Positions 1,398 to 36,118 of a stretch of 39,906 bases of DNA are shown in pieces. The first letter of the stretch is position 1; each line of letters starts with the position of its first letter. Origin of the DNA: Bacteroidota bacterium (GTDB taxonomy: Bacteria; Bacteroidota; Bacteroidia; Chitinophagales; Saprospiraceae); NCBI GenBank assembly GCA_038529855.1, contig JBCBDH010000001.1:1-39906 (forward strand), given 5' to 3'. The position numbers were made by a program, and so were the translations under genes. The notes under the pieces are model-generated. The model was not told where the DNA came from and ran no database searches. It saw only the letters and a list, made by a program, of their open reading frames with translations.

Positions 1398-1564
1398 GCT
1401 ATTACTGATTTAGGTGTGTAAGAATAAATTGTTGCCGCCGTGCTTTGAAGTTAAGCATAAAAAAACAGAAAAGTTAACAAGCTTAATAGATTAGTCAGCA
1501 TGCTAATTAATTGTTATTTTTATCATCCCAAGTACTTTTCCCCAATCCTTTTAAAGTAAATATC

Positions 1565-2473
1565 ATGACAAGTTCGTCTTTACTAGATGTAATCATTATT
1601 GGTGGTAGTTATGCAGGTCTTTCAGCGGCGATGGCCCTTGGGAGGTCCATGCGGAAGACCTTGATTATTGATCATGGTCAACCCTGCAATCGACAAACGC
1701 CTCATGCTCATAATTTTTTGACCCAAGACGGTCAAACACCAGCAGCTATTTCAACACTTGCCAGAGAACAAGTTGAGCGGTATCCCACCATTCGGTTCTG
1801 TAGTGATTTGGCTATTAGTGGAGAAAAGGTGGCGGAGGGCTTTGAAATCCATACCCAACAAGGGCAAACATTTAAAGCGAAGAAACTGATTTTTGCTAGC
1901 GGTATAAAAGATATCATGCCAGACATCAAAGGCTTTGCGGCTTGTTGGGGTATTTCTGTGATTCATTGCCCCTACTGTCATGGTTATGAATATCGAGGGA
2001 AAAAGACTGGGATTATGGTCGGTGGAGACCGAGCCTTTCATCTAGCTACCTTGGTTGCTAATCTCACACAGGATTTAAGTATTATTTGTGCTGGGCCAGC
2101 CGATTTTAGCGAGACACAAATGAATAGACTTCAAAAAAACCAGATTAAGATCATTGAAAGTAGGGTCACTGAAATCGAACATCACAATGGCCATCTCAAG
2201 GCATTGGTATTTGATAATGGAGACAAGCAGGTTTTTGATGCAGTTTATGCAGGCGTTCCCTTTGAGCAGCATACGAAGATTCCTTTAGACTTAGGCTGTG
2301 AATATACAGATCAAGGCTATATTCAAACGGATGATTTCCAGAAGACCAATGTGCCTGGTATCTTTGCTTGTGGTGATAATGCGAGTCCTCTACGCGCTGT
2401 TGCTCAAGCCATTGCCAAAGGGAATATGGCTGGAGCTATTGCCAACAGTGAATTGGCAGAAGAGCAGTTTTAG
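1565..2473 (+). CDS. FAD/NAD(P)-dependent pyridine nucleotide-disulfide oxidoreductase, thioredoxin-reductase-like
   Basis: Track ORF 1511-2473. It has a dinucleotide-binding motif (DVIIIGGSYAGLSAA), a redox CxxC (HCPYCHGYE) and a C-terminal FAD motif (GIFACGDNA). I moved the start to ATG 1565 (MTSSSLLDVIIIGG) because 1511 is a TTG and the GxGxxG motif normally lies close to the N-terminus. Confidence 0.8.
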   Translation: MTSSSLLDVIIIGGSYAGLSAAMALGRSMRKTLIIDHGQPCNRQTPHAHNFLTQDGQTPAAISTLAREQVERYPTIRFCSDLAISGEKVAEGFEIHTQQGQTFKAKKLIFASGIKDIMPDIKGFAACWGISVIHCPYCHGYEYRGKKTGIMVGGDRAFHLATLVANLTQDLSIICAGPADFSETQMNRLQKNQIKIIESRVTEIEHHNGHLKALVFDNGDKQVFDAVYAGVPFEQHTKIPLDLGCEYTDQGYIQTDDFQKTNVPGIFACGDNASPLRAVAQAIAKGNMAGAIANSELAEEQF

Positions 2474-2508
2474 TAACCATCATTATCCTTTTCAGTATTT
2501 GAGTATAT

Positions 2509-4125
2509 TTGTCAAAAGCACCTAAATATTCAAATATGCAATTGTTTGCTCTTCGACTGAGTCTTGGGTTTGTCTGCCTCTCTCTTCTTTTTTCTTGTAC
2601 AGAGCAAGAAGCTACTTCAAGCCTCCCCAGAATTGCCATTGCGGGATTGGCTATCGAATCCAGTACCTTCTCTCCAGCCACAACAGAAGAGGAGGCTTTT
2701 CACGCTCGTTATAAAAATGGTATTTTTTATGAGTACCCCTTCCTTGCGGAAAGTGCGGATTTGCGCAATCGCGCCCATTGGATACCTACAGTCAGAGGAC
2801 ATGCCTTGCCTGGGGGGATGGTTACCAGAGAAGCTTATGAGTCGCTAGTGGGAAAGACTTTAAAATTATTGAAAGACAGCTTGCCCTACGATGGCCTTTT
2901 CTTTGATATTCACGGGGCGATGAGTGTAGAGGGGATTGAAGATCCCGAAGGTGATTTTATCCTTCGCGTCAGAGAAATTGTGGGTCTAGAAACCATGGTT
3001 TCCACTTCTATGGATTTGCATGGCAATGTTTCTGAACGGCTTGCTTTCCATACTGATCTCATCACCTGTTATCGAATGGCGCCCCATGAAGATGCGATGG
3101 AATCCAAAAAACGTGCGGCTGAAAATTTAGTCCTGCGATTGGAAAGTGGAAAAGGTAAACCCAAATACAAAGCCCGTATCAAAGTCCCCATTCTACTGCC
3201 TGGAGAAAAAACCAGTACGCGCGTAGAACCTGGAAAAAGTCTTTATGCCAAAGTCCAACCGCTGACCGAGCAGGCGGGTGTCCTGGATGCTGCGATCTGG
3301 ATGGGCTATCCCTGGGCAGATGAGGCTCGAAATCATGGCGTTGTAATGGCGGTGGGTGATGAGGAGCAGCAGGTTGGGCAAGCAGCTGAAGAATTGGCCC
3401 AAGCCTTCTGGGCCGCCCGTGACGAATTCGAATTTGTCGCTCCCACCACGACTTTAGAAGAAAGCATCCAGACTGCGCTCAATAGCCAAGACCGCCCCTT
3501 CTTCATCAGCGATATGGGCGATAACCCCACAGCTGGTGGCGCTGGCGATGTCACCTGGACCTTGCAGGAAATCCTCAAGCATCCCCAGCTCAATTCCAAA
3601 ACAGGCCCCATGCTCGTCTACGCCTCCATCCCAGGTCCTGAGCTAATCGAGCAAGCCTTAACAGCTGGCATTGGTGCTCAAGTATCCGCTCCCGTTGGCG
3701 CCGCCATCGACAATCGCTACGCTCCCCCTCTTCAGCTAAGTGGAACCGTGCTCGCGATCAAAGAAGGCGATAAAAATGCAGAAGTCGAAGTCGTCGTCAA
3801 AGTGAATAATATTCATGTCATCGTCACTAAAAAAAGAAAACCCTATCATTACGAAAAGGATTTTCTAGAGCTGGATTTGGATATCAGAAAGGCGGACATC
3901 GTCGTCGTCAAAATTGGCTACCTGGTTCCAGAATTATACGATATTCAAAAAGCTTGGCTCATGGCCCTGACGCCTGGTGGGGTAGACCAAGATTTGAAGC
4001 GCCTGCCATATCAAAACATTCAAAGACCTATGTTTCCAGTGGATGAATTTGAGGAGGAGCCCAAGCTAAAAGCTCAATTTATTCCATTGTCTTGTCAAAA
4101 AGTAATAGATTCGTACAATTACTAG
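2509..4125 (+). CDS. MlrC-like (peptidase M81 family) protein, probable lipoprotein
   Basis: It has the N-terminal signature RIAIAGLAIESSTFSP and the block FFDIHGAMSVEGIEDPEGDFILRVREIVG...SMDLHGNVSERL...CYRMAPHEDAMES, both typical of MlrC N-domains as I remember them. The signal/lipobox is MQLFALRLSLGFVCLSLLFSC. The real start may be ATG 2536 rather than 2509. Confidence 0.7.
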   Translation: MSKAPKYSNMQLFALRLSLGFVCLSLLFSCTEQEATSSLPRIAIAGLAIESSTFSPATTEEEAFHARYKNGIFYEYPFLAESADLRNRAHWIPTVRGHALPGGMVTREAYESLVGKTLKLLKDSLPYDGLFFDIHGAMSVEGIEDPEGDFILRVREIVGLETMVSTSMDLHGNVSERLAFHTDLITCYRMAPHEDAMESKKRAAENLVLRLESGKGKPKYKARIKVPILLPGEKTSTRVEPGKSLYAKVQPLTEQAGVLDAAIWMGYPWADEARNHGVVMAVGDEEQQVGQAAEELAQAFWAARDEFEFVAPTTTLEESIQTALNSQDRPFFISDMGDNPTAGGAGDVTWTLQEILKHPQLNSKTGPMLVYASIPGPELIEQALTAGIGAQVSAPVGAAIDNRYAPPLQLSGTVLAIKEGDKNAEVEVVVKVNNIHVIVTKKRKPYHYEKDFLELDLDIRKADIVVVKIGYLVPELYDIQKAWLMALTPGGVDQDLKRLPYQNIQRPMFPVDEFEEEPKLKAQFIPLSCQKVIDSYNY

Positions 4126-16857: not shown

Positions 16858-16917
16858 TAGCGGGCAAGCCTTGTATTAAATATTTTTTATTGTAGTGTAT
16901 TAAAGAACAAAAAAGCA

Positions 16918-19900: not shown

Positions 19901-20679
19901 TCAATCAAAGTAATAGTGCTGGGGCTTATCAAGATTTGATTACAGTGATTGACGAAACGATGTGGACGGTTGATCCTTTGGGGGGAAGGACAGATAGCAA
20001 TTTATCGGTATTGGTGGGACGACCTTTGGCTTTGGTAAGGGCCAGTTTGGAATATGATATGGCCAAAGTAGAATTGCAGAATCAACAGTGGTTGTCTACG
20101 ACGGAATCCGATAGGACAGATGGCTATTTAGACCTGGATTTTCCCGTTTGGTTGGGCAGTCTTTTGGATCAGAATGATGGCTTAATGGGCTATTTCAAAG
20201 GAACGGATTACAGCCAAATGAACTCTGTTCATCGTTCCGAACTCATTGATCCCAAAAGCCAATACATCGTCAATGAGTCTTTTAGTTTAAAACTTAATCA
20301 AGCCACTTCCTACGTTACGCTACTGCTTGACCCCAGGGGAACAGTCAATGCGGCGACGGGGATATTGCCTGTCCAAACGCAGGAGCTTCCCGCGCGGTAT
20401 GTCGATAGTGCTTTGGAGGCTATGGAAGTCACTTTCCGTACGGGCCCGCTTATTACCAATCCCAATAGCATCCGCATGCCGCTACCTGCAGAAATTAATG
20501 GCAAGTGGTCTTGGATACAGCACGCTGGGGTGACGGTTTGGGAGGAAGTTGATGAAATCGAAAAAACAACGCCCAATGCCTTGTTAAAAGACAGTCCAGC
20601 AAATACCTTAAAAGAGGGTTGGTTAAAGCTTGCTGATGCGCTAGGGAATAATACTGCTGCGAAGGATAAAACAAATTAA
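16918..20679 (+). CDS. Hypothetical protein (1253 aa), cluster core gene
   Basis: A long ORF with an ATG start. The N-terminal motif is PVGIILQWSLPDGFTQG...YPYAPNRWLVVR. A probable coiled-coil or helical segment, LAQLIALNQLQGQSDQETALLERQQRELYALWWKKLYYD, lies at about 18130-18250. I saw no signal peptide or TM helix. Confidence 0.9.
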   Translation: MATSNNVLWSGPRLMVPMTVEAVVVTKPYLNSEWAYLPMKYYNIDRTSDITPDFSGNLTSSSSKPPVGIILQWSLPDGFTQGIEDVQGDVEYPYAPNRWLVVRNASVMAAWVVESDFKGTSEVPGTSAYPNLNGGLVKFIQIGRQIPLTEWQGEQNPTEPFLQAIGPGYPGFSTFSADIQNVFSFHDDMSGIENTKELISYTIVGWYADPTNDPLYGKREFGASGWTTETEWADLMNMRYWSVGDSTDLQISVAAAQAWLAKNGIVVDPSNKQDYYAAQTLCEGLVFNINWEGVDGPTQSGVPTLDNIPPSNLTELPQIAVGNTSIDALSALVNQELIWQGNPIEGVELFLQELQYDLLMASTMTNQRYLVETTIMKAWYTAQYGGREWLVIDPDASTQPDLPDPILAQLIALNQLQGQSDQETALLERQQRELYALWWKKLYYDLNIIFGFPPAGVTIEQFRAINEYLVEQLDPENANSFISQVANLQQSASNDQASLLTAISNLREALSALSPPLSLQEKNRPSRWEANEPVMLVYGAKRSYMHGSDGRFTDNQDLFTRFTGQHLYGIKVAVTDTIDVIVDERNITIPTPTSLAGNPLLPKEVESVWIEHFFLNTSNAEAIAMAACAAAELPYDPALVETIQKQQTLIWNTDVDSPLDQQTLAELSGLQLPPNPSKIPSLVGINAWIPPWNPLYLSWDIRWLPSSQTPSDIMSKWKYDPAAMEYVWDSLEQPDPWENGQRLSGYTLITPASTFVLQQKLATYLAENPNSPYEGIKGFVDTVANWDFLSQSIRNFNDMLIQWNGNQLNAISESDSAYAVVGEETNWAPRPDMTIPFVPIRAGHFVIENVLIVDVFGQVFNPIAAQGLSPRQYKPIIGQGLRTTFSDQIIQLPPRLMQPMRLNFELVSADDKMEDIWVNPEANPVCGWILPNHIDRGITVYDASGKLLGEILLVGGQLNKRLRWDPVPGGTVPVGQPLREQITNLHLLGFVEGLINQSNSAGAYQDLITVIDETMWTVDPLGGRTDSNLSVLVGRPLALVRASLEYDMAKVELQNQQWLSTTESDRTDGYLDLDFPVWLGSLLDQNDGLMGYFKGTDYSQMNSVHRSELIDPKSQYIVNESFSLKLNQATSYVTLLLDPRGTVNAATGILPVQTQELPARYVDSALEAMEVTFRTGPLITNPNSIRMPLPAEINGKWSWIQHAGVTVWEEVDEIEKTTPNALLKDSPANTLKEGWLKLADALGNNTAAKDKTN

Positions 20680-20704
20680 TAGAACCAAAAAATAGATTAA
20701 TATC

Positions 20705-22267
20705 ATGTCATCTTTGCTCAAATATACAGTCACGACCAATCCCAGTCCACTATACTTTACTCGGGATACCCTGAACCCTTCTATTACCAGTATTTTGATT
20801 GCCGTCACGCCAGATGGGACGGAGGATGTTCCTTGCAATGGCATACAATTCGCCATCCAGCTTGGAGCGGAGGATAAGGATTTGACGACGGCGAATAATG
20901 AGTTGAGCATTGTTCCAGAAAGCTTACAAACGACTTGGTCGATGGTGCGTTTTTCACCAGGTATTTATCGAGCTTATCCCATTGCACCAACAACGACCAT
21001 AAAGGCAGGAGAGGTACTTACCTTTCAATTGCAGGGCATTTTGGTCAATGAGAAAGCTGGATCGACGCTTTTGGGAATTGTAGCTAATTTACCTGGCGGG
21101 CCAGATTCTGATAATATTACTTTGACGAAGGTGCGCTCTAATTTAGAAATCAATAGTTTTGATGCTTCGCCTCAAGCCATTTACCCTGGAAACTTTAGCC
21201 AGTTGAGCTGGACAACGACCGCCGCTTCTTCCGTGACGATTCTACCTGAGGGCCCTCCCAGTCTGCCAACCAATGGTACGCTGGAGGTCAGCCCTAATGT
21301 AGCCACTACTTATTATTTGACGGTATTTGGAGAGGGGCCATCTATTACACAGAGCTTTCCTATTCAGGTCATTCGAGCGAAGATTATTGAATTTACCTCT
21401 ACGGATAATTCCATTGATCCTGGCCAACCAGTATTATTGAAGTGGAATGTCCAAGATGCCGCCAATATAGAAATAAGTCCAGGCGGCTATACCAATTTAC
21501 CAGCGATAGGCGAATTGGTGGTTTCGCCGCAGCAGACGACGGCCTATTCTTTGAAAGCCACCAATGTCAATTCAGAAGATCAGCGAGATCTGGTGATTAT
21601 TGTCAGTAATCCGAATCCAAAGATTCTATCTTTTAAGGCCAATCCCGAATCTTTTATTGTCGGCGAATCATCCCCTATTGAATTGTCCTGGGATGCTGAA
21701 AATACTACTACTGTTACCCTTACGCCTGGTAATTACGGTCCGCTTCCGCCCAATAGTTTGGTGATTGTCAATCCGACAGAACCGACCACTTATACCCTGA
21801 CGGCTACGAACAATACGGGTTTGATAGCTATAAAACAGGTGACCGTTTTTGATTCTTATACCAGACGATTTTATTATAATACTACGGAGGCGGCGATGGT
21901 TTATATTGTTATCAATTGTATTGATCTGCCTATTGGTAGTGCAGTAGGGATGCAAGCCTATCCCTATTTGCCACCCCCTTATGGACAGATACAAATTCCA
22001 AAGACCGACATTACGACTAAGCCCATATTCAAATTAGAGACTTTGGTTGCGGTGCCTGCCAATACCAATTTTACTTTTTACGTCAATTATTATCCGCAGG
22101 ATCAGGTTACCCCTCCACATGCGACCATTCAGCTTCAAGTAATTTTATATACTTCGGATGCGGTTCAGCTCAATGAGGATGGAACGGTGAGTATGAAGGC
22201 TGTTGTGAGGGGAACTTATCCCAAGACTACGAAGGACTTGGTTCTTTCACAGGACTTGAAACTTTAA
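20705..22267 (+). CDS. Tandem paralogue P1 (520 aa): conserved N-domain, three Ig-like repeats, variable C-domain
   Basis: N-terminus MSSLLKYTVTTNPSPLYFTRDTLNPSITSILIAVTP. It has three repeats of about 80 aa with the pattern I.SF.A.P..I..G....LSW....A..V.L.P......G...V.P...T.Y.L.A, at roughly 21140-21373, 21374-21607 and 21608-21847. The C-domain occupies 21848-22264. Confidence 0.9.
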   Translation: MSSLLKYTVTTNPSPLYFTRDTLNPSITSILIAVTPDGTEDVPCNGIQFAIQLGAEDKDLTTANNELSIVPESLQTTWSMVRFSPGIYRAYPIAPTTTIKAGEVLTFQLQGILVNEKAGSTLLGIVANLPGGPDSDNITLTKVRSNLEINSFDASPQAIYPGNFSQLSWTTTAASSVTILPEGPPSLPTNGTLEVSPNVATTYYLTVFGEGPSITQSFPIQVIRAKIIEFTSTDNSIDPGQPVLLKWNVQDAANIEISPGGYTNLPAIGELVVSPQQTTAYSLKATNVNSEDQRDLVIIVSNPNPKILSFKANPESFIVGESSPIELSWDAENTTTVTLTPGNYGPLPPNSLVIVNPTEPTTYTLTATNNTGLIAIKQVTVFDSYTRRFYYNTTEAAMVYIVINCIDLPIGSAVGMQAYPYLPPPYGQIQIPKTDITTKPIFKLETLVAVPANTNFTFYVNYYPQDQVTPPHATIQLQVILYTSDAVQLNEDGTVSMKAVVRGTYPKTTKDLVLSQDLKL

Positions 22268-22278
22268 TCAAAGGAATT

Positions 22279-22298
22279 CCTTGGGGCTTGCCCCGAGG
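22279..22298 (+). terminator. GC-rich tetraloop hairpin 12 nt after the P1 stop (possible attenuator)
   Basis: The sequence ccttgggg-cttg-ccccgagg forms an 8-bp stem (one G.U pair). The 3' arm can instead pair perfectly with cctcgggg at 22352-22359. Confidence 0.3.
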
Positions 22299-22389
22299 TG
22301 AAATATATCTTTGCCGCAAAAGCGGCGCCATTAGATACCTTGATGGCTCTGCCTCGGGGTAGTTTATTAACCTTTTTACAAAAAACATT

Positions 22390-23964
22390 ATGGCTGCTCC
22401 ACTTCGCTATACCCTTACGACGAATCCCAGTCCGCTTTACTACACTCGGGATTCGCTCAATCCTTCCATTACTAATATTCTAATTGCGATTACGCCTGAG
22501 GGGGAGGAAGAGGTTTTTTGTGAGGCCCTGCAGTTTACTATTTCGCTTGGCTCAGAGGACTTGGATCTGACTACAGTCGCTAATGAGTCAAGCATCGTTA
22601 CGGAGAGCTTGCAAACAACTTGGTCGATAGAGCGATTTTCGGCGGGGGTGTATCGAGCTTATCCTATTGCACCCAATAGTTCCATCAAAGCGGGAGAGGT
22701 CCTTACTTTTCAGTTGCAGGGTGTTATTGTCAATGAAGTGGCGGGTTCTACACTATTTGATATTGTGGCCAATCTACCCGAAGGGCCAGATGCTACGGAC
22801 ATTACCTTGACCAAGGTACGCTCCAATCTGGAAATCAATTCTTTTTCCGGAAATCCCTCTTCGATTTATCCTGAAGATTCTAGCCAATTGAGCTGGTCGA
22901 CGACGGCTGCCTCTACCGTGACAATCTTACCTGATGGCCCTCCAGGGCTGCCCACTAATGGCACCTTTGATGTCAGTCCCAATGTAGCGACGACTTATTA
23001 TTTGACAGTATTTGGAGAAGGGCCATCCCTTACACAGAGTTTTCCTATACAGGTCGTTCGGGCGCGGATCATTGAATTTACTTCTAGTGATAATTCCATT
23101 ATCCCTGGAGAACCGGTTGCGCTTCGGTGGAATGTGGAGGATGCGGCCTCTATTGAAATTAGTCCTGGCGATCACACGGATTTACCGCCTGTTGGAACTT
23201 TGGTCGTTATGCCTATGCAGACAACGGCTTATTCTTTGAGGGTAACGAATGTGAATTCGGAAGACCAGCGGGATTTGGTTATAGTAGTGAATACGCCCAG
23301 CCCGGAAATTATTTCTTTTAATGCCAGTCCATCTTCCTTTTTTGCACCTGAACCCGTTCCTATTCAATTGTCATGGAATATTGAAAATGCAAGCATTGTG
23401 ACGCTTTCTCCGGGCTCCTATGGGCCGCTTAGGTTGGTTGATTCTGTTACGGTGGATCCTACCGAGCCTACGACCTACACCTTGAGTGCCAGCAATGGAG
23501 GTTTAATAGATATAAAACAATTAACAGTTACGGAGTCTTTCTACAAGAGTTTTGAATATTACAATCAAAACGATGCACTTGCCTGGATTGATATTTTAAC
23601 TACCAATTTGCCAATTGGTAGTGCAGTAGCGATGTTTAGCTTGCCCTATTTTTCTGATCCCTTTCTTCGAGTGAGTATTCCAAAAACGACAGTCAATAGG
23701 TCTCCTAATTTTAAGGCTACGACTTTTTGTGACCTGTTCCGCAATACCAATTATACCTTTACCGTCACCTACTATCCAGAAGGGCAGCCCAACCCCCCCA
23801 ATGGCTCTATCCGTTTGGATGTCATCATCTACCGGTCGGGAGCTGCACAAATTGTAGATGGAAAGCTTGTGCTGAAACCTATTTCTGGAGATAATTATCC
23901 TGAGGAATCTTTTACCACCGTCTTTTCACAAGAAATCAAAATACCCAGTAATGAGACGGAGTAA
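22390..23964 (+). CDS. Tandem paralogue P2 (524 aa)
   Basis: Same architecture as P1, with N-terminus MAAPLRYTLTTNPSPLYYTRDSLNPSITNILIAITP and C-terminus ...VFSQEIKIPSNETE. Confidence 0.9.
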   Translation: MAAPLRYTLTTNPSPLYYTRDSLNPSITNILIAITPEGEEEVFCEALQFTISLGSEDLDLTTVANESSIVTESLQTTWSIERFSAGVYRAYPIAPNSSIKAGEVLTFQLQGVIVNEVAGSTLFDIVANLPEGPDATDITLTKVRSNLEINSFSGNPSSIYPEDSSQLSWSTTAASTVTILPDGPPGLPTNGTFDVSPNVATTYYLTVFGEGPSLTQSFPIQVVRARIIEFTSSDNSIIPGEPVALRWNVEDAASIEISPGDHTDLPPVGTLVVMPMQTTAYSLRVTNVNSEDQRDLVIVVNTPSPEIISFNASPSSFFAPEPVPIQLSWNIENASIVTLSPGSYGPLRLVDSVTVDPTEPTTYTLSASNGGLIDIKQLTVTESFYKSFEYYNQNDALAWIDILTTNLPIGSAVAMFSLPYFSDPFLRVSIPKTTVNRSPNFKATTFCDLFRNTNYTFTVTYYPEGQPNPPNGSIRLDVIIYRSGAAQIVDGKLVLKPISGDNYPEESFTTVFSQEIKIPSNETE

Positions 23965-24000
23965 ATGGATCAATCACCGCTCAAAAATCAAAAATACCCA

Positions 24001-25572
24001 ATGAATACTCTACTTCGATATACCTTGACGACCAATCCCAGTCCGCTTTATTATACTCGGGATTCGCTTAATCCTTCCATCACCAATATCCTCATAGCGA
24101 TTACGCCGAATGAAGGGGAAGAGGTGATGTGTGGTGCTTTGCAATTTAGGATAGCACTCGGTTCAGGTGCAGAAGATTTAACTACGGCTGATCAGGAAAT
24201 CAGCATTGTTCCAGAAAGCTTGCAAACGACTTGGTCGATAGAACGATTTTCAGCGGGTATTTATCGCGCTTTTCCCATTGCGCCCAATAAGGGTATCAAA
24301 GCAGGAGAGGTCATCACTTTTCAACTACAGGGAGTGGTGGTCAATGAGGCAGCGGGCTCTACTTTATTTAAAATTGATGCTACGCTAGCACCACCCAATG
24401 ATTCAGAAAATACTGAAATCACCTTGACTAAGGTGCGCTCTAATCTGGATATCGAAGATTTTTCGGGAAAACCTCCTGCGATCTATCCCGAGGAGTTTTG
24501 TACCTTGAGTTGGACGACCAAGGCTGCTTCCACCGTCGTATTACTACCCGATGCCCCTCCGGGCCTCCCGACGAACGGCACTTATGAAGTGAGTCCGGCT
24601 GTACCTACGACTTATTACTTGGTAGCCTATGGGGAAGGGCCAGCAGTGACAAAGACTTTTCCTGTACAAGTGACACGGGCAAAGATTATTGAATTTACCT
24701 CTAGTGCCAATTCCATTAATCCTGGTGAACCAGTACTACTTCAGTGGAGTGTTCAGGATGCTGCTTCCATCTCAATTAGTCCTGGCGATTACAATGATTT
24801 ACCACCTACGGGTACTTTGGTCGTTATGCCGCTTCAAACAACGGCCTATTCCTTGAAGGTGACCAATGTGAATTCAGAAGATCAGCGGGATTTGGTCGTT
24901 GTCGTCAGTGTGGCTGCTCCTGAAATCTTATCTTTTATTGCTAATCCCCCTTCCTTCTTTGTGCCTGAGCCTGTACCGATAGAGCTATCTTGGGATATTG
25001 TAAATGGCCAGGTGATTACCCTTTCTCCAGGTACTTATGGACCACTTCAGCAAAAGGATTCGGTTACGGTAAATCCCATAGTACCAACTACCTATACCCT
25101 GAGCGCCAGTAATGAAGGTTTGATTGATGTTAAGCAAATAACCGTATCTGAATACCTCACCAAGGAATTTAGGTATTATTCTGAATTGGTATCATTGGTC
25201 TACATCACTATTGAAGCTACTCGTTTGCCTATAGGTAGTGCCTTAAGTATGTATGGCCGACCGATCCTACCTCCTCCAGAGGGGCAGATAAAAATACCCA
25301 AAACAACCGTCAATAAATATCCAGACTATAAGCTACCCACCTTTGAACTGCTTACTGGTAATACTAATTTTACTTTTTATGTAACCTATTATCCAGAAGG
25401 ACAACCCAATCCAAGCAATGCCTCTGTAAAGCTGGATATCTATGTTTATTGGGCAGAGCATCTGGTGTTTAGCCCAGAAGGTAAGCTGAGTTTAGAACCT
25501 ATTGGAGACAAGCTTCCCAAAGCCTCCTTCACCAAGGTCTTTTCAGAAGAATTTAAAATCCCCTCTAGTTGA
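24001..25572 (+). CDS. Tandem paralogue P3 (about 523 aa from ATG 24001)
   Basis: The track start 23965 directly abuts the P2 stop and would add 12 residues (MDQSPLKNQKYP) that no other paralogue has. Those 36 nt resemble the P3/P4 and P4/P5 spacers. ATG 24001 gives MNTLLRYTLTTNPSPLYY, matching the other paralogues. Confidence 0.85.
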   Translation: MNTLLRYTLTTNPSPLYYTRDSLNPSITNILIAITPNEGEEVMCGALQFRIALGSGAEDLTTADQEISIVPESLQTTWSIERFSAGIYRAFPIAPNKGIKAGEVITFQLQGVVVNEAAGSTLFKIDATLAPPNDSENTEITLTKVRSNLDIEDFSGKPPAIYPEEFCTLSWTTKAASTVVLLPDAPPGLPTNGTYEVSPAVPTTYYLVAYGEGPAVTKTFPVQVTRAKIIEFTSSANSINPGEPVLLQWSVQDAASISISPGDYNDLPPTGTLVVMPLQTTAYSLKVTNVNSEDQRDLVVVVSVAAPEILSFIANPPSFFVPEPVPIELSWDIVNGQVITLSPGTYGPLQQKDSVTVNPIVPTTYTLSASNEGLIDVKQITVSEYLTKEFRYYSELVSLVYITIEATRLPIGSALSMYGRPILPPPEGQIKIPKTTVNKYPDYKLPTFELLTGNTNFTFYVTYYPEGQPNPSNASVKLDIYVYWAEHLVFSPEGKLSLEPIGDKLPKASFTKVFSEEFKIPSS

Positions 25573-25617
25573 TGAGTAATCAGCTAAAGCATTTGATCCA
25601 ATACGATAAAAAAATAA

Positions 25618-27186
25618 ATGATGGCGAATCAACTTAAATATGAAATAACGACGAATCCCAGTCCGCTTTACTATACCCGAGACACGCTCAATCCTTCCAT
25701 CACGAATATTATTATAGCGATTACACCAGAGGAGGAGGAAGATATTGTTTGTAGTGCATTGCAATTCAGTATAGCGCTCGGGCCGGATGCCAGCGATTTA
25801 ACTACCGTTAATAATGAAGCCAGCATTGTTCCAGAAAGTCTGCAAAGCACTTGGGCGATAGAGCGATTTTCGGCTGGTATTTATCGGGCCTTTCCCCTTA
25901 CTCCAGACCAAATTATTAAAGCAGGAGAGGTCATCGTATTTCAGTTACAAGGAATTGTGGTCAATGAAGCAGCGGGGGCTACATTGATGAATATTGTTGC
26001 TACGCTGTCGGAGGAGTCGCAAAATACCAATATCGTGCTGAATAAAGTGCGCTCTAATCTGGACATCGTAGATTTTTCGGGAAATCCTCCTGCGATCTAT
26101 CCCGAGGAGTTTTGCACCTTGAGTTGGACCACCGTTGCAGCTTCCACTGTTGTATTACTACCTGACGCCCCTCCGAGCCTTCCGACGAATGGCAGCTATA
26201 AAGTCAGTCCAACCGTACCTACGACCTATTACCTGATTGCCTATGGAGAAGGGCCAGCAGTGACGAAGACTTTTCCCGTGCAGGTGACTCGGGCCCAAAT
26301 AATAGAGTTTACCTCTAGTGATAATTCCATTATTCCCGGGCAAGCAGTTGCGCTTCGGTGGATTGTACAGGATGCGGCCTCTATAGAAATCAGTCCGGGC
26401 GATCATAAGGATTTACCGCCTACGGGTACTTTGGTCGTTATGCCTACGCAAACGACAGCTTACTCTTTGAAGGCGACGAATGTGAATTCGGAAGACCAGC
26501 AAGATTTGGTAGTGGTGGTGAATGTGCCTAGCCCAGAAATCCTTTCCTTTGATGCCGATCCACCTTCTTTTTATGCCCTTGACCCCGTCCCCGTTGAATT
26601 GTCCTGGCGGATAGAAAATGCAAAAATCGTATCGCTATCTCCGGGTACTTACGGACCGCTCAATTTGGTTGATTCGGTTACCGTAAATCCTATGCAAACC
26701 ACAACTTACACCCTAACTGCCAGTAATGACGGTTTAATTGATGTAAGGCAACTGACGGTTCAAGAGACCTATACAAAGGAGTTTGATTATTATAACGCAA
26801 GTGATGTCCTGGCTTGGATTGATTTATTGTGTTTTAACCTACCCATTGGAAGCGCAGTCGCCCTGCATGCTACGCCTCAATTTTTGCAACCTGACTCTCG
26901 GATCAATATCCCAAAAACAACGGTCGATACCTATCCGGAATTTAAGGCTTCAACTTTTAGCGGCCTTGTTGGGGATACGACCTATACATTTTTTTTCACT
27001 TATTATCCAGAAGGACAGCCCACTCCTCCCGACGGCTATTTCCGACTAGAAATTGTTACCTACAATTCGGAAGCTGCGCAGCTGGTGGATGGCAAGATTG
27101 TCTTAAAATCTATTTCTGGGGATAATTATCCCGAAGAGTCCTATACAAAAGTCTTTTCGAAAGAATTTAAAATTCCTTCTGGTTGA
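25618..27186 (+). CDS. Tandem paralogue P4 (522 aa)
   Basis: N-terminus MMANQLKYEITTNPSPLYYTRDTLNPSITNIIIAITP, same architecture, C-terminus ...VFSKEFKIPSG. Confidence 0.9.
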   Translation: MMANQLKYEITTNPSPLYYTRDTLNPSITNIIIAITPEEEEDIVCSALQFSIALGPDASDLTTVNNEASIVPESLQSTWAIERFSAGIYRAFPLTPDQIIKAGEVIVFQLQGIVVNEAAGATLMNIVATLSEESQNTNIVLNKVRSNLDIVDFSGNPPAIYPEEFCTLSWTTVAASTVVLLPDAPPSLPTNGSYKVSPTVPTTYYLIAYGEGPAVTKTFPVQVTRAQIIEFTSSDNSIIPGQAVALRWIVQDAASIEISPGDHKDLPPTGTLVVMPTQTTAYSLKATNVNSEDQQDLVVVVNVPSPEILSFDADPPSFYALDPVPVELSWRIENAKIVSLSPGTYGPLNLVDSVTVNPMQTTTYTLTASNDGLIDVRQLTVQETYTKEFDYYNASDVLAWIDLLCFNLPIGSAVALHATPQFLQPDSRINIPKTTVDTYPEFKASTFSGLVGDTTYTFFFTYYPEGQPTPPDGYFRLEIVTYNSEAAQLVDGKIVLKSISGDNYPEESYTKVFSKEFKIPSG

Positions 27187-27230
27187 TGACCAATCAGCTA
27201 AACCATTTGAGTAAGCTTGATAAAAAATAA

Positions 27231-28811
27231 ATGATGGCCAATAAACTTAAATATGAGGTGACCACCAATCCCAGCCCGCTTTACTATACCCGGGATTCCC
27301 TCAATCCTTCGATCACGAATATTCTGATTGCGATTACGCCCAAAGAGAAGGAAGATGTACTGTGCAATGGCCTACAATTTGCCATTCAGCTGGGATCAGA
27401 TGATAGAGGGTTGACAACAGTAAATAACGAATCGAGTATTGTCCCTGAAAGTCTACAGGCTTCTTGGGTGATGGAAAGGTTTTCAGTAGGAATCTATCGG
27501 GCTTTTCCATTGACTCCTGGGACGGTGATCAAAGCTGGGGAGGTCATTACCTTTCAATTGCAAGGGGTGATTGTCAATGAAGTGGAAGGGACAAGCTTAC
27601 TCAATATCGTCGCCAATCTGCCTGGTGGTTCAGAGGATAATAATATCACGCTGTTTAAGGTAAGATCGAGTTTGGATATCGGCAATTTTTCTGCTAATCC
27701 CACGGAGGTTTATCCAGGGCAGTCGAGTAACCTGAGTTGGACAAGCACGGCAGCGTCTAAAGTGATCCTATTACCCGATAATCCTTCGGATTTACCGACC
27801 ACTGGTACGCATCCGGTCAGCCCAATCATTTCTACTACTTACTATTTGACGGTTTTTGGGGAAGGGCCCTCGATTACCAAGAGCTTTCCCCTTCAGGTCG
27901 TCAGAGCTAATATTGTCGAATTTACTTCCAGCGCAAATTCTATCAAGGCCGGAGAAACAGTAGAGCTTCGATGGGTAGTTCAAGGTGCCGCTTCTATAGA
28001 GATCACGCCTGGTAATTATAAAAACCTACCAGCAAGCGGTTCGATCACCGTACAGCCTACCTCTATTACCGTTTATTCACTCAAAGCCAGTAATGTTAAT
28101 TCCCAAGATCAGCGGGATTTGACCATCGTGGTAGATAATCCGATCCCTAGAATTGTCAGCTTTGGGGCTGATCCCTTGTTTATCTTATGGTTCAATCCCT
28201 CGCCAGTTCAGTTATTTTGGTCAATTACCGATGCAACACTTATTGATCTTACCCCAGGGCCTCATCCAGAACTTCAGCCTGAAGGCAGTCTGACTGTTTA
28301 TCCAAATCAAACTACGACCTATACATTGACGGCCAGTAATGTACAACATACTGTCTCGCAATCTATCACGGTCACCCTTGGTCAGCAGGAAGCGACTGTT
28401 TACCAGCAAGGAGCCGAAGGGGGGCGGATGATCATTGGTCTTTACGAGACCAATTTACCACTTGGGAGTGCCGTCTCCTTATTCTGTCCAGAAACCGGAA
28501 CCAATCCTAAAATTGATATTCCTAAGACGACCATTACAGAGGACTTCCGAGGGTATGTGGCTGCGATGATGTCTGATATACCAGCTAATTTCGTCGGTAC
28601 TTTTTATGTGACTTATTATCCTGAGGGTAAGCCCCTTCCAACAGATGCCACACTCGAGGTGCGGGTGATTCCCTATAATCCACCTTTTCCACCCTATAAT
28701 GTTCTACAAAATCCATCTATGGCCTTTCCTGCTGATGGGGCAGCCAATGCAGCCAATACTTCTGGGATTGTATTTTCAAAAGTGATGGAGATCAAGAAAG
28801 GAGGAGGCTAA
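27231..28811 (+). CDS. Tandem paralogue P5 (526 aa), the most divergent, with a distinct C-terminal tail
   Basis: N-terminus MMANKLKYEVTTNPSPLYYTRDSLNPSITNILIAITP. It has three Ig-like repeats. The C-domain keeps NLPLGSAV, IPKTTI and FYVTYYPEGKP but ends in a P/A/N-rich tail (...IPYNPPFPPYNVLQNPSMAFPADGAANAANTSGIVFSKVMEIKKGGG). Confidence 0.9.
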   Translation: MMANKLKYEVTTNPSPLYYTRDSLNPSITNILIAITPKEKEDVLCNGLQFAIQLGSDDRGLTTVNNESSIVPESLQASWVMERFSVGIYRAFPLTPGTVIKAGEVITFQLQGVIVNEVEGTSLLNIVANLPGGSEDNNITLFKVRSSLDIGNFSANPTEVYPGQSSNLSWTSTAASKVILLPDNPSDLPTTGTHPVSPIISTTYYLTVFGEGPSITKSFPLQVVRANIVEFTSSANSIKAGETVELRWVVQGAASIEITPGNYKNLPASGSITVQPTSITVYSLKASNVNSQDQRDLTIVVDNPIPRIVSFGADPLFILWFNPSPVQLFWSITDATLIDLTPGPHPELQPEGSLTVYPNQTTTYTLTASNVQHTVSQSITVTLGQQEATVYQQGAEGGRMIIGLYETNLPLGSAVSLFCPETGTNPKIDIPKTTITEDFRGYVAAMMSDIPANFVGTFYVTYYPEGKPLPTDATLEVRVIPYNPPFPPYNVLQNPSMAFPADGAANAANTSGIVFSKVMEIKKGGG

Positions 28812-34441: not shown

Positions 34442-36118
34442 ATGAATCATTCAATCTATATATGGCTACTTGGACTGTGTATCGTGATCAGTGCTTGTGA
34501 GAAGCACCCCTGGAAAGAATTTGATCGAATCAATTCCAGTCTTCCCAATGCCAATCTCCGCGCTCAATTCAATATTAATGACAATGCTTGTCTGGTGCCT
34601 TGCGACCCCATGTTTGAGAATACCTCCATTAATGCCTTGGAATACGAATGGTATTTTGGGAATGGGGACAATGCAACTGATGAGAATCCCTCCTATGTAT
34701 ATGAGCAGCCAGGCGTATACGAGGTGATGTTGATTGCCAAAAACTTTGCATTAGCAGATACTGCGATACAAAGCCTGATCATACAAGATGAGGCCTTGTT
34801 ACCCATTGCTAATTTTGATGTTGACAATAACAATTGTTTGGTGCCTTGTAATCCTATGCTTATCAATAGCTCCATCAATACAGATTCTATTCGATGGGAT
34901 TTGGGAAATGGACTAAGTTCTAATTTAGATGAGCCTGGACAGATATATGATCTGCCAGGAGATTATGAGGTGAAGCTATTGGCCTATGGGAATAATGCGG
35001 TGGATTCCATCACAAAGACCATCTCTATCATCGCGCCTATTACCTTTGAGAAAACCTATCTAGTTGATCCCAATAATCGCTATGTAGGGGGGGCAGTTCT
35101 TCAATTGGAGGATGATGGCTATATGATCACAGGATACAACTCTTCAGACAACGCGAGCTATATGCTTCGTGTAGATGACAGCGGAAATACCCAAATAGAT
35201 AAGCATTATGGCAATGGAGGGGCTTATTCGCTTACTACACTAAATGCTCAGGAATATCTGATTACAGGATTCAATTTAAACCTTACTCAGGGATTTGGCA
35301 CTGCTTATATCCTTCGAGTCAATGGTATTTTTGATCAATTACAAGCATTCTCTTTTGATCAAGGTGGAGATCGCTTTTACACGGTAGCCAAACAAGCCTC
35401 CAATAATGAACTATTGATGGGGGGACGCATAGGGACGACAAGTCAAGTCACTGCCGCCATTTTAAGAATGGATGCTAATTTTAATACAGATACGATTCTG
35501 TATACGGATTACACACAGGTATTTGACTTGATCATTACCTCAGATAATCGTTGTTCGTTTATCTGTAGAAATGAAGCACAACAGCTCTTTTTAGTCAAAA
35601 CCAATGCAGACTATTCCTCTATTGCCTGGGTTTTGCCACTACCCACCTATCAAATTCCCGATCTTAAGGATAGCGATCATTTACTAATAGAGGATGACAA
35701 TGGCGATTACATCATCGTTGGTTATGCACCCTCAGGTAATTTAGGACAGCAAGATGCAACGCTGATAAAAGTATCGAGCAATGGCCAGCAGCGTTGGCAG
35801 AAATATTATGGAGGAGCCTTAAATGATCAAGGGGCCAGTGTCCAGAATACGGCTGATGGTGGTCTTATCCTGCTGGGTTCAACGGAGAGTTTTTCTAGTG
35901 GAGGGAAGGATGTCTATTTAGTGAAGACGGATGAAGAGGGAGCAGTACTTTGGGAGCGTACTTATGGTGGATTGGATATTGACTTTGGTACTTCAGTTAA
36001 GCAGACCCGTGACGGTGGTTTTATTCTGACTGGAGGTACTCAGAAAAACGAAGTAGGAGGTATACGGGATCAGATTTATTTGATCAAAACGGCTTCTAAT
36101 GGTCAGATATATGAATAA
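34442..36118 (+). CDS. Lipoprotein with two PKD domains and a C-terminal beta-propeller-like repeat region
   Basis: The lipobox is LLGLCIVISAC. The PKD signatures are FENTSINALEYEWYFGNGDNATDENPSYVYEQPGVYEVMLIAKN and a second copy, LINSSINTDSIRWDLGNGLSS...PGDYEVKLLAYGN. Repeated YGG...D.G.SV..T.DGG.IL.G motifs follow. Confidence 0.8.
   Translation: MNHSIYIWLLGLCIVISACEKHPWKEFDRINSSLPNANLRAQFNINDNACLVPCDPMFENTSINALEYEWYFGNGDNATDENPSYVYEQPGVYEVMLIAKNFALADTAIQSLIIQDEALLPIANFDVDNNNCLVPCNPMLINSSINTDSIRWDLGNGLSSNLDEPGQIYDLPGDYEVKLLAYGNNAVDSITKTISIIAPITFEKTYLVDPNNRYVGGAVLQLEDDGYMITGYNSSDNASYMLRVDDSGNTQIDKHYGNGGAYSLTTLNAQEYLITGFNLNLTQGFGTAYILRVNGIFDQLQAFSFDQGGDRFYTVAKQASNNELLMGGRIGTTSQVTAAILRMDANFNTDTILYTDYTQVFDLIITSDNRCSFICRNEAQQLFLVKTNADYSSIAWVLPLPTYQIPDLKDSDHLLIEDDNGDYIIVGYAPSGNLGQQDATLIKVSSNGQQRWQKYYGGALNDQGASVQNTADGGLILLGSTESFSSGGKDVYLVKTDEEGAVLWERTYGGLDIDFGTSVKQTRDGGFILTGGTQKNEVGGIRDQIYLIKTASNGQIYE

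Follow-up and report, generated by a model that had tools for sequence, protein, structure and literature searches.

Five tandem paralogues next to a DUF6603 gene cluster in a Saprospiraceae bacterium: putative arms of an uncharacterised multi-protein complex

The DNA considered here (the window) is a stretch of 39,906 nucleotides (nt), positions 1 to 39,906 of the forward strand of contig JBCBDH010000001.1 in assembly GCA_038529855.1, from a member of the Bacteroidota assigned to the Saprospiraceae. At positions 20705-28811 it holds five consecutive intact open reading frames (ORFs) of 520-535 amino acids (aa) that belong to the same family, exactly the five tandem paralogues that a preliminary description, prepared from the sequence alone, had placed there. 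They follow four genes designated core A to core D, the first of which encodes a giant protein with a DUF6603 domain; all of these genes lie on the plus strand, and the coordinates of the paralogues and their domains are positions in the whole stretch (Table 1). Each of the five proteins, referred to below as arms, is laid out as an N-terminal domain (N-domain) of ~145 aa, three immunoglobulin (Ig)-like repeats of ~80 aa each and a C-terminal domain (C-domain) of ~135 aa.

A hidden Markov model (HMM) profile of the N-domain matches all five paralogues with E-values of 1e-81 to 1e-83, and in the HMM matches of paralogue 1 the N- and C-domains stand at 3e-81 and 9e-43, respectively. The motifs listed in the preliminary description (TTNPSPLY[YF]TRD, LQF, DLTT, IVPESLQ, GEV.TFQLQG..VNE, NLPIGSAV, IPKTT and TF.VTYYPEG) were all recovered in the alignment, and its three repeats of ~80 aa are confirmed both by an HMM built from the repeats and by an AlphaFold2 model. 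Two of its statements hold in part: the single conserved cysteine (C44) is invariant across the five paralogues but is not kept in the homologues of other organisms, and the term 'nearly invariant N-terminus' suits residues ~9-36 only, which are 91% identical, whereas the N-domain as a whole is 63-75% identical. The absence of signal peptides that it reported is consistent with a hydropathy scan, used in place of a dedicated predictor, in which no 19-residue window of any paralogue or core protein exceeded a Kyte-Doolittle value of 1.8 and no signal-peptide or transmembrane stretch appeared.

In the AlphaFold2 model of paralogue 2 (mb552936ff4a5), a monomer prediction, the protein is all-beta and comprises five beta-sandwich-like domains. 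The three repeats are modelled as beta-sandwich domains with a predicted local distance difference test (pLDDT) score of 85-95, and the C-domain as a sandwich of about ten strands with pLDDT mostly 80-89. An Ig-like fold of the repeats is indicated by Foldseek matches to titin, contactin and other multi-Ig proteins (E 1e-9 to 1e-10), and the Pfam Ig-type families DUF11, I-set and Ig_3 match them only below their cut-offs. When the whole model was compared with PDB and BFVD in Foldseek, only generic tandem-Ig matches came back, with a template modelling (TM) score of ~0.2, and the N- and C-domains of the window proteins have no match in Pfam, PHROG or PDB. Sequence and profile searches of PDB, started from a paralogue, the giant protein, each of the other three core families and the profiles of DUF6603, the N-domain and the C-domain, yielded nothing meaningful; the paralogues and every core protein were also run against Pfam, NCBIfam, PADLOC and PHROGs, where the matches were to DUF6603, below threshold or confined to the Ig repeats; and profile-profile comparison found no relationship among the N-domain, the Ig repeats, the C-domain and the X domain described below.

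The five copies have diverged to different degrees along their length. Mean pairwise identity is 69% in the N-domain, 67% in Ig1, 71% in Ig2, 55% in Ig3 and 39% in the C-domain, where the range is 28-62%, and nonsynonymous substitution (dN) amounts to 0.63 in the C-domain against 0.22 in the N-domain, about a threefold difference. Paralogue 5 keeps 67-71% identity with the other four in the N-domain, but only 38-46% in Ig3 and 28-30% in the C-domain. The closest relatives differ by domain, with Ig1 pairing paralogues 1 and 2 as well as 3 and 4 (88%), and paralogues 2 and 4 forming the closest pair in Ig2, Ig3 and the C-domain; these shifting relationships suggest that the duplications are old and that the part from the N-domain to Ig2 was exchanged to some extent in the past. 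At the DNA level the copies are 63-83% identical and have no long identical tracts, and synonymous sites are near saturation. The ratio of nonsynonymous to synonymous substitution (dN/dS), which the preliminary description had suggested calculating for each domain among the paralogues, is 0.1-0.3 in every domain; judging from the sequences, each of the five ORFs is intact and evolves under purifying selection.

The arrangement of these genes recurs elsewhere. A DUF6603 protein, followed by proteins of ~520, ~320 and ~1250 aa and then by at least one N-domain protein, occurs in the window and in 11 of 11 other loci read (L002, L003-L005, L006, L008, L009, L010, L012, L013 and L014), which come from Bacteroidota, an alphaproteobacterium and metagenomes, and in this set of loci the N-domain family was found only next to a DUF6603 core. 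Scanning the N-domain alignment against GTDB genomes and JGI metagenomes located Taibaiella helva, Aquimarina muelleri, a Mucilaginibacter metagenome-assembled genome and two metagenome contigs, where the DUF6603 protein is followed by proteins of ~509, ~316 and ~1210 aa and by an N-domain protein, and where the core is 37-44% identical to that of the window; the loci of Hoeflea ulvae (L008) and Mucilaginibacter pedocola (L009), together with L010, L012, L013 and L014, were reached via other proteins. Most loci (L003-L005, L009, L013 and L014) have a single N-domain protein, and the five-fold expansion of arms was seen, among the loci read, in the window only. L010 has two arms, one with an N-domain, three Ig repeats and a Kelch tail (N-Ig3-Kelch) and one ending in a C-domain (N-Ig3-Cdom). 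In L012, the closest relative system, with a giant protein of 3250 aa, a single ORF of 1156 aa (P0159, 10001-13471) holds two arm modules, N-Ig2 with a YVTN-like propeller and N-Ig3 with a short tail. As a separate observation, five genes for ~180-aa phage Collar proteins (PF07484) flank the DUF6603 core of L009 (1-935 and 22643-24341), three of them in tandem directly after the N-domain protein, where they form another tandem set of tip-like paralogues.

An exhaustive HMM search with the N-domain through 1.84 billion cluster representatives returned 225 at E<=1e-3, including 53 at E<=1e-10, and architectures were parsed with local HMMs for the best 150 of the 225, of which 149 lie outside the window. 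The suggestion of the preliminary description that the N-domain docks to a core is supported by its DUF6603-only synteny and by its covalent fusion to the C-terminus of core D homologues, behind which one or two N-domains stand in 12 of the best 150 representatives. Five of the fusions are full length (P0190, P0217, P0224, P0230 and P0277), with P0230 and P0277 running on into Ig repeats, and the junction lies a few residues after a conserved EGWL.L motif, precisely where, in the window, a stop codon and a spacer of 25 nt separate core D from paralogue 1. Identity among the fused proteins is as low as 33-46%, so that the fusions are ancient and maintained rather than errors of assembly. Since the two are fused in other lineages, the N-domain protein would, by the Rosetta-stone argument, physically associate with the 1253-aa core D protein and in effect prolong it. 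Docking and modularity are well supported by these comparisons, and physical docking would be expected in this organism also.

What follows the N-domain varies across the family. The domain begins within the first 40 residues in 131 of the best 150 representatives and is followed by zero to five Ig repeats, three being the commonest non-zero class apart from one, and then by a variable tail. Kelch tails number 15 and window-type C-domains three (P0160, P0169 and P0174), and Pfam identified, among 72 members with unassigned tails, WD40-like, YncE/lactonase, NHL and PD40 propellers, six Collar domains (best E 5e-26), and the Peptidase_S74, Gp10_C and PLAT domains. The swappable distal end that had been postulated is thereby borne out, the same N-domain and Ig stalk bearing any of these modules, and a conserved N-terminal part with a variable C-terminal part is, by the architectures parsed, a property of the whole N-domain family. 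The tails that replace the C-domain are typical ligand-binding or fibre-tip modules, and their kinds suggest that the C-domain is itself a binding domain and that the five versions in the window differ in specificity.

The C-domain also has relatives within the DUF6603 system. In Bacteroidota loci the Kelch-tipped arm is followed by two genes, for proteins of ~365 and ~309 aa that are paralogous to each other (35%), and the C-terminal halves of these proteins match the window C-domains with an E-value of 3e-8, that of paralogue 5 best. A skeleton of the form N.P.G[ST].V.F ... P.I.L..T.V ... VPA.Y ... F.Y is common to the window C-domains and to such proteins, which combine the C-domain with an X domain (motif IF.R..L.D.G..P..G..S.SPD.IP) that matches no family and that the window lacks. 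Hoeflea has three X-domain/C-domain proteins upstream of the DUF6603 gene, and L010 has several of them beside its N-Ig3-Cdom protein. The window has neither an X domain nor a Kelch arm; instead, the C-domain stands on the N-Ig3 stalk five times. A word-index search with the C-domain profile found two fragments only, and the fragment P0307, from locus L011 and closest to paralogue 4, is the only close relative of the window C-domains outside this genome. By these comparisons the C-domain is a conserved module of the DUF6603 system, and not a free hypervariable domain.

The arm genes are separated by spacers of 25-122 nt, all on one strand, with no excess of promoter- or terminator-like sites. 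They are probably co-transcribed with the core, and co-expression is suggested because the spacers are short, the strand is common and switch elements are absent: inverted repeats in the window are short and imperfect, none of them significant, its tandem or simple repeats amount to two trivial tandem repeats, and family scans of its large ORFs found no recombinase domain. The spacer between paralogues 1 and 2 folds as RNA into a stable multi-hairpin structure (-44.1 kcal/mol, z = -3.7) that occurs nowhere else in the window and has a U-rich stretch behind it, with a terminator-like site at 22346-22362, and it may be an attenuator, a terminator or a processing site that sets paralogue 1 apart from paralogues 2-5. 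The start of paralogue 3 is most likely the internal methionine at 24001, giving 523 aa, because the recorded product (P0003) has this length and the resulting 36-nt spacer then resembles the other spacers. A-rich leaders without an obvious Shine-Dalgarno sequence are seen at 16878-16917, 20665-20704, 22350-22389, 25578-25617 and 27191-27230.

Membership of core A in the DUF6603 family (PF20248) is clear, with a score of 476.6 bits against a gathering cut-off of 27, and the protein is 41-44% identical to the DUF6603 proteins of L003-L005. Homologues number more than 1314 at E<=1e-10, are typically 1250-1600 aa long and occur in Acidobacteriota, Myxococcota, Chloroflexota, Bacteroidota, Proteobacteria and other phyla; none has a functional name, and a literature search on DUF6603, PF20248 and IPR046538 found no paper naming the family. 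An AlphaFold2 model of the DUF6603 region (giant aa 2100-2900, from a 70-sequence alignment; pLDDT 85, predicted TM score 0.67) has a long series of antiparallel strands of 10-18 residues, a small helical insert and a further beta domain. Its best Foldseek matches in PDB reached an E-value of 2e-3 at a TM score of 0.2 and include porins, SlpA, the ApoB100 beta-belt and SprA; such matches say 'very large beta-sheet' only and are uninformative. At 3269 aa the window protein is about twice the usual length of 1250-1600 aa, and the 1266-aa DUF6603 protein of Hoeflea aligns only to aa 22-256 and 1942-2890 of the giant; the ~1700 extra residues (aa ~256-1942) have no internal repeats and no family match. 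Cores B, C and D have no match in Pfam, NCBIfam, PADLOC, PHROGs or PDB, and B and C are fused in Hoeflea (872 aa) and in L014 (766 aa).

Upstream of the cluster, at 1511-4125, lie genes for a thioredoxin-reductase-like flavoprotein and for an MlrC-like M81 metallopeptidase; both are of an ordinary chromosomal kind, and neither is conserved beside other DUF6603 loci. Downstream are genes for a PKD-domain protein (34442-36118, plus strand) and for a caspase-like Peptidase_C14 protein with a peptidoglycan-binding domain (36173-37504, minus strand), both of which are probably unrelated to the DUF6603 system, since they have no counterpart in the related loci.

Table 1. Positions and properties of the arm genes, the core genes, the structured spacer and the X-domain/C-domain proteins of other loci
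Feature	Length	Position	Strand	Subdivision or properties	Basis
Paralogue 1	520 aa	20705..22267	+	N-domain 20705-21154, Ig1-3 21155-21850, C-domain 21851-22267	ORF, alignment, HMM
Paralogue 2	524 aa	22390..23964	+	N-domain 22390-22839, Ig1-3 22840-23535, C-domain 23536-23964	ORF, AlphaFold2 model, HMM
Paralogue 3	535 aa as ORF	23965..25572	+	N-domain 24001-24456, Ig1-3 24457-25152, C-domain 25153-25572	ORF, leader comparison, HMM
Paralogue 4	522 aa	25618..27186	+	N-domain 25618-26067, Ig1-3 26068-26763, C-domain 26764-27186	ORF, HMM
Paralogue 5	526 aa	27231..28811	+	Most divergent; N-domain 27231-27680, Ig1-3 27681-28382, C-domain 28383-28811	ORF, alignment
Core A, giant DUF6603 protein	3269 aa	4489..14298	+	DUF6603 at aa 2143-2677	Pfam PF20248, E 1e-142
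Core B	518 aa	14282..15838	+	41-44% identical to syntenic ~509-521 aa proteins of L002-L005	
Core C	326 aa	15844..16824	+	37-39% identical to syntenic ~316-323 aa proteins	
Core D	1253 aa	16918..20679	+	Putative N-domain attachment partner; 40-42% identical to syntenic ~1209-1222 aa proteins	
Structured spacer between paralogues 1 and 2	122 nt	22268..22389	+	Other spacers 25-45 nt	
X-domain/C-domain protein pairs or triplets	~145-390 aa	L003 12087-14144; L004 12070-14139; L005 12101-14146; L008 5954-8666			

In the best-supported explanation of these findings, the products of the five genes would be paralogous arm subunits at the periphery of an uncharacterised multi-protein DUF6603 complex, the core of which would be formed by the DUF6603 protein (here 3269 aa) and the proteins of ~520, ~320 and ~1250 aa. 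The N-terminal beta-rich domain would attach the arm, its site being most likely the C-terminal end of the 1253-aa protein or the immediate neighbourhood of that end; the three Ig-like domains would act as a spacer, and the C-domain would be a distal beta-sandwich, such that the organism would make complexes with up to five old, individually conserved distal domains, most plausibly binding five different ligands. That the genes supply alternative or additional arms of this design, each with an attachment, a spacer and a distal domain, seems on balance probable. Of the interpretation offered in the preliminary description, the modular docking arms remain, whereas phase variation, effectors and arrays of phage-type receptor-binding proteins (RBPs) do not, and differences in C-domain target are suggested rather than seen; no phage genes, toxin domains, immunity genes, or invertible or simple repeats were found that would place the five proteins among the RBPs, effectors or phase-variable adhesins it had named.

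Several observations tell against this explanation or narrow it. The N-domain of the paralogue 2 model is beta-rich but of low confidence (pLDDT 50-69), and its docking in this organism is putative. The protein P0175 carries N-domain/Ig modules behind a DUF6603 protein and P0159 has an N-domain internally, so that a free N-terminus is not needed; for these two reasons the N-domain may serve generally as an 'arm-start' module and not as a plug made for core D in particular. The C-domain family is also present on separate proteins of other loci, and when the fragment P0307 is compared with paralogue 4, Ig3 is 75% and the C-domain 76% identical, at a nucleotide identity of 78%. The preliminary description would have abandoned its view if the C-domains proved no more variable across strains than the remainder, and ongoing diversification is not borne out in this single orthologue fragment. 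As the C-domain of the fragment is no more diverged than its Ig3, and as dN/dS is 0.1-0.3 throughout, the divergence of the C-domains is probably that of old paralogues, with ongoing diversification unsupported. This pattern fits five old, individually conserved tips, although conservation of the C-domain would fit fixed structural roles as well as it fits fixed specificities. When predicted loops and strands of the C-domain are compared, its variation shows no concentration in the loops (0.61 against 0.57), and for this reason a 'framework plus variable loops' is not claimed. The hairpin cluster between paralogues 1 and 2 may bring about unequal expression or modulated read-through of the arms, and no component shows a signal peptide or transmembrane segment.

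The main rival of the arm hypothesis is that the five proteins are fixed structural subunits of a hetero-oligomer, all of them needed, each in its own position and with its C-domain in contact with the complex, and so not interchangeable. Purifying selection on all domains, a C-domain as conserved as Ig3 in the one orthologue fragment, and the regular occurrence of C-domain proteins in two to four copies in other systems would all agree with such a design, but most loci read manage with a single N-domain protein, so the core needs no five distinct arms, and the exchange of tails for unrelated binding folds would be unexpected for fixed internal contacts; the idea is unlikely, if by no means negligible. 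Less likely again, and improbable in absolute terms, is that the arms are sensors of an intracellular surveillance complex, for example an anti-phage one, whose tips recognise invader proteins and were partly borrowed from phage fibres. Beta-propeller tips do resemble the sensor domains of known bacterial immune proteins, the tips of relatives include phage-derived domains, and the system is devoid of signal peptides and transmembrane segments throughout; however, no component has a PADLOC match, no ATPase, nuclease or other effector domain was detected, and the neighbourhoods read consist of ordinary chromosomal genes.

The remaining candidates, in descending order polymorphic toxins, phase-variable adhesins and prophage fibres, carry little weight. 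Polymorphic effectors, in which the conserved N-terminal part would serve as a handle for delivery and the C-domain would be the toxic payload that varies, are brought to mind by the conserved N-terminus, diverged C-terminus and tandem copies that also mark polymorphic toxin loci, as the preliminary description had argued. Pfam, NCBIfam and PADLOC nevertheless reveal no toxin domain, the 25-122-nt spacers leave no room for small immunity ORFs, the C-domains are mutually homologous small beta-sandwiches with a common skeleton rather than unrelated toxin folds, and the relatives bear binding modules, not enzymes, which makes this origin very improbable. A set of phase- or antigenically variable adhesins, switched by recombination or slipped-strand mispairing, would agree with tandem genes of the same family and with the patches of lower synonymous divergence from the N-domain to Ig2 that suggest past gene conversion in some pairs, but hardly with copies that are 63-83% identical in DNA and free of long identical tracts, each with its own start codon and full ORF and none with a signal peptide, nor with a window that shows no significant inverted or simple repeats and no recombinase in the family scans of its large ORFs; it merits scarcely any credence. 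The same is true of prophage or tailocin tail-fibre genes, that is, true phage RBPs, to which a match to PHROG 2155 ('virion structural protein', E 3e-32), the cyanophage virion proteins at the top of the Foldseek and tblastn matches, and the Collar, S74 and Gp10_C tips of relatives might point. All of the phage matches cover the Ig repeats only (aa 130-300), at a TM score of ~0.2; neither the window nor the related loci yielded a phage gene for structure, replication or lysis; DUF6603 and the N-domain were not found in IMG/VR pattern scans or GenBank phages at the sensitivity used; and, with respect to contractile injection systems or tailocins, the locus has no sheath, tube or baseplate match in Pfam, PHROG or NCBIfam.

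Parallels with better known systems are instructive for the arm hypothesis. In phages with multiple RBPs, tailocins and extracellular contractile injection systems (eCIS), as exemplified by T4 gp10/gp12, the branched RBPs of Klebsiella and CBA120-like phages, and Afp13/Pvc13, an N-terminal anchor holds an exchangeable C-terminal receptor-binding domain. The window arms are similar in having an attachment module, a spacer and a variable distal module, in lacking signal peptides, in forming several tandem paralogues just after the core genes, and in belonging to a family whose other members bear Collar, Peptidase_S74 and Gp10_C tips. In contrast to these systems, the window has no tube, sheath, baseplate, capsid or lysis genes and its core has no PHROGs or PDB match, the N-domain bears no relation to the known anchors of fibres, searches of viral collections did not recover the system, and the arms are predicted, in a monomer model, to be strings of Ig-like domains rather than trimeric beta-helical or coiled fibres. 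Invasin, intimin and the large RTX adhesins likewise present a C-terminal binding domain, putative in the window, on a stalk of Ig-like beta-sandwiches. These adhesins have a signal peptide, type I or type V secretion signals and a membrane or cell-wall anchor, whereas the window shows no such export or anchorage and the anchor would be a domain tied to a soluble multi-protein core. Tc (ABC) toxin complexes carry Ig-like receptor-binding domains on TcA and add-on subunits, and the window resembles them in that a single operon encodes soluble proteins of very large size that lack signal peptides, with putative peripheral beta-sandwich binding domains, but it differs in having no match to the Tc-associated Pfam families (VRP1, TcA_TcB_BD, SpvB and RHS) and no Tc match for the DUF6603 model in Foldseek. 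There is a likeness, too, to the PF20248 family, of which the giant protein is a clear member, and to its loci in Bacteroidota, Hoeflea and metagenomes, with which the window has its gene order in common.

An anchor, a spacer and a swappable tip thus make up a known kind of layout, here built from N-domain, C-domain and core families that are uncharacterised, non-phage and widespread. It is possible, and is put forward tentatively, that the DUF6603 operon specifies a categorically new, widespread, non-phage machine made of four core proteins and exchangeable target-binding arms, of which the window would be a multi-specificity version; its giant beta-sheet protein would then be without a structural relative, and its arms would draw on the pool of phage-fibre tip domains. 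For the DUF6603 proteins the present analysis offers a first organising picture, a fixed core of four proteins plus an arm protein whose attachment domain is in some cases fused to one of the core proteins and whose tip is exchanged from system to system, being a lectin-like propeller, a phage fibre tip or a beta-sandwich specific to the system. The system is open to experiment, in that the tips predict ligands, the fusion predicts the docking site, and the five-paralogue locus provides a test of tip specificity. If the complex is indeed a new cell-targeting or surface machine, exchangeable tips would make it re-targetable.

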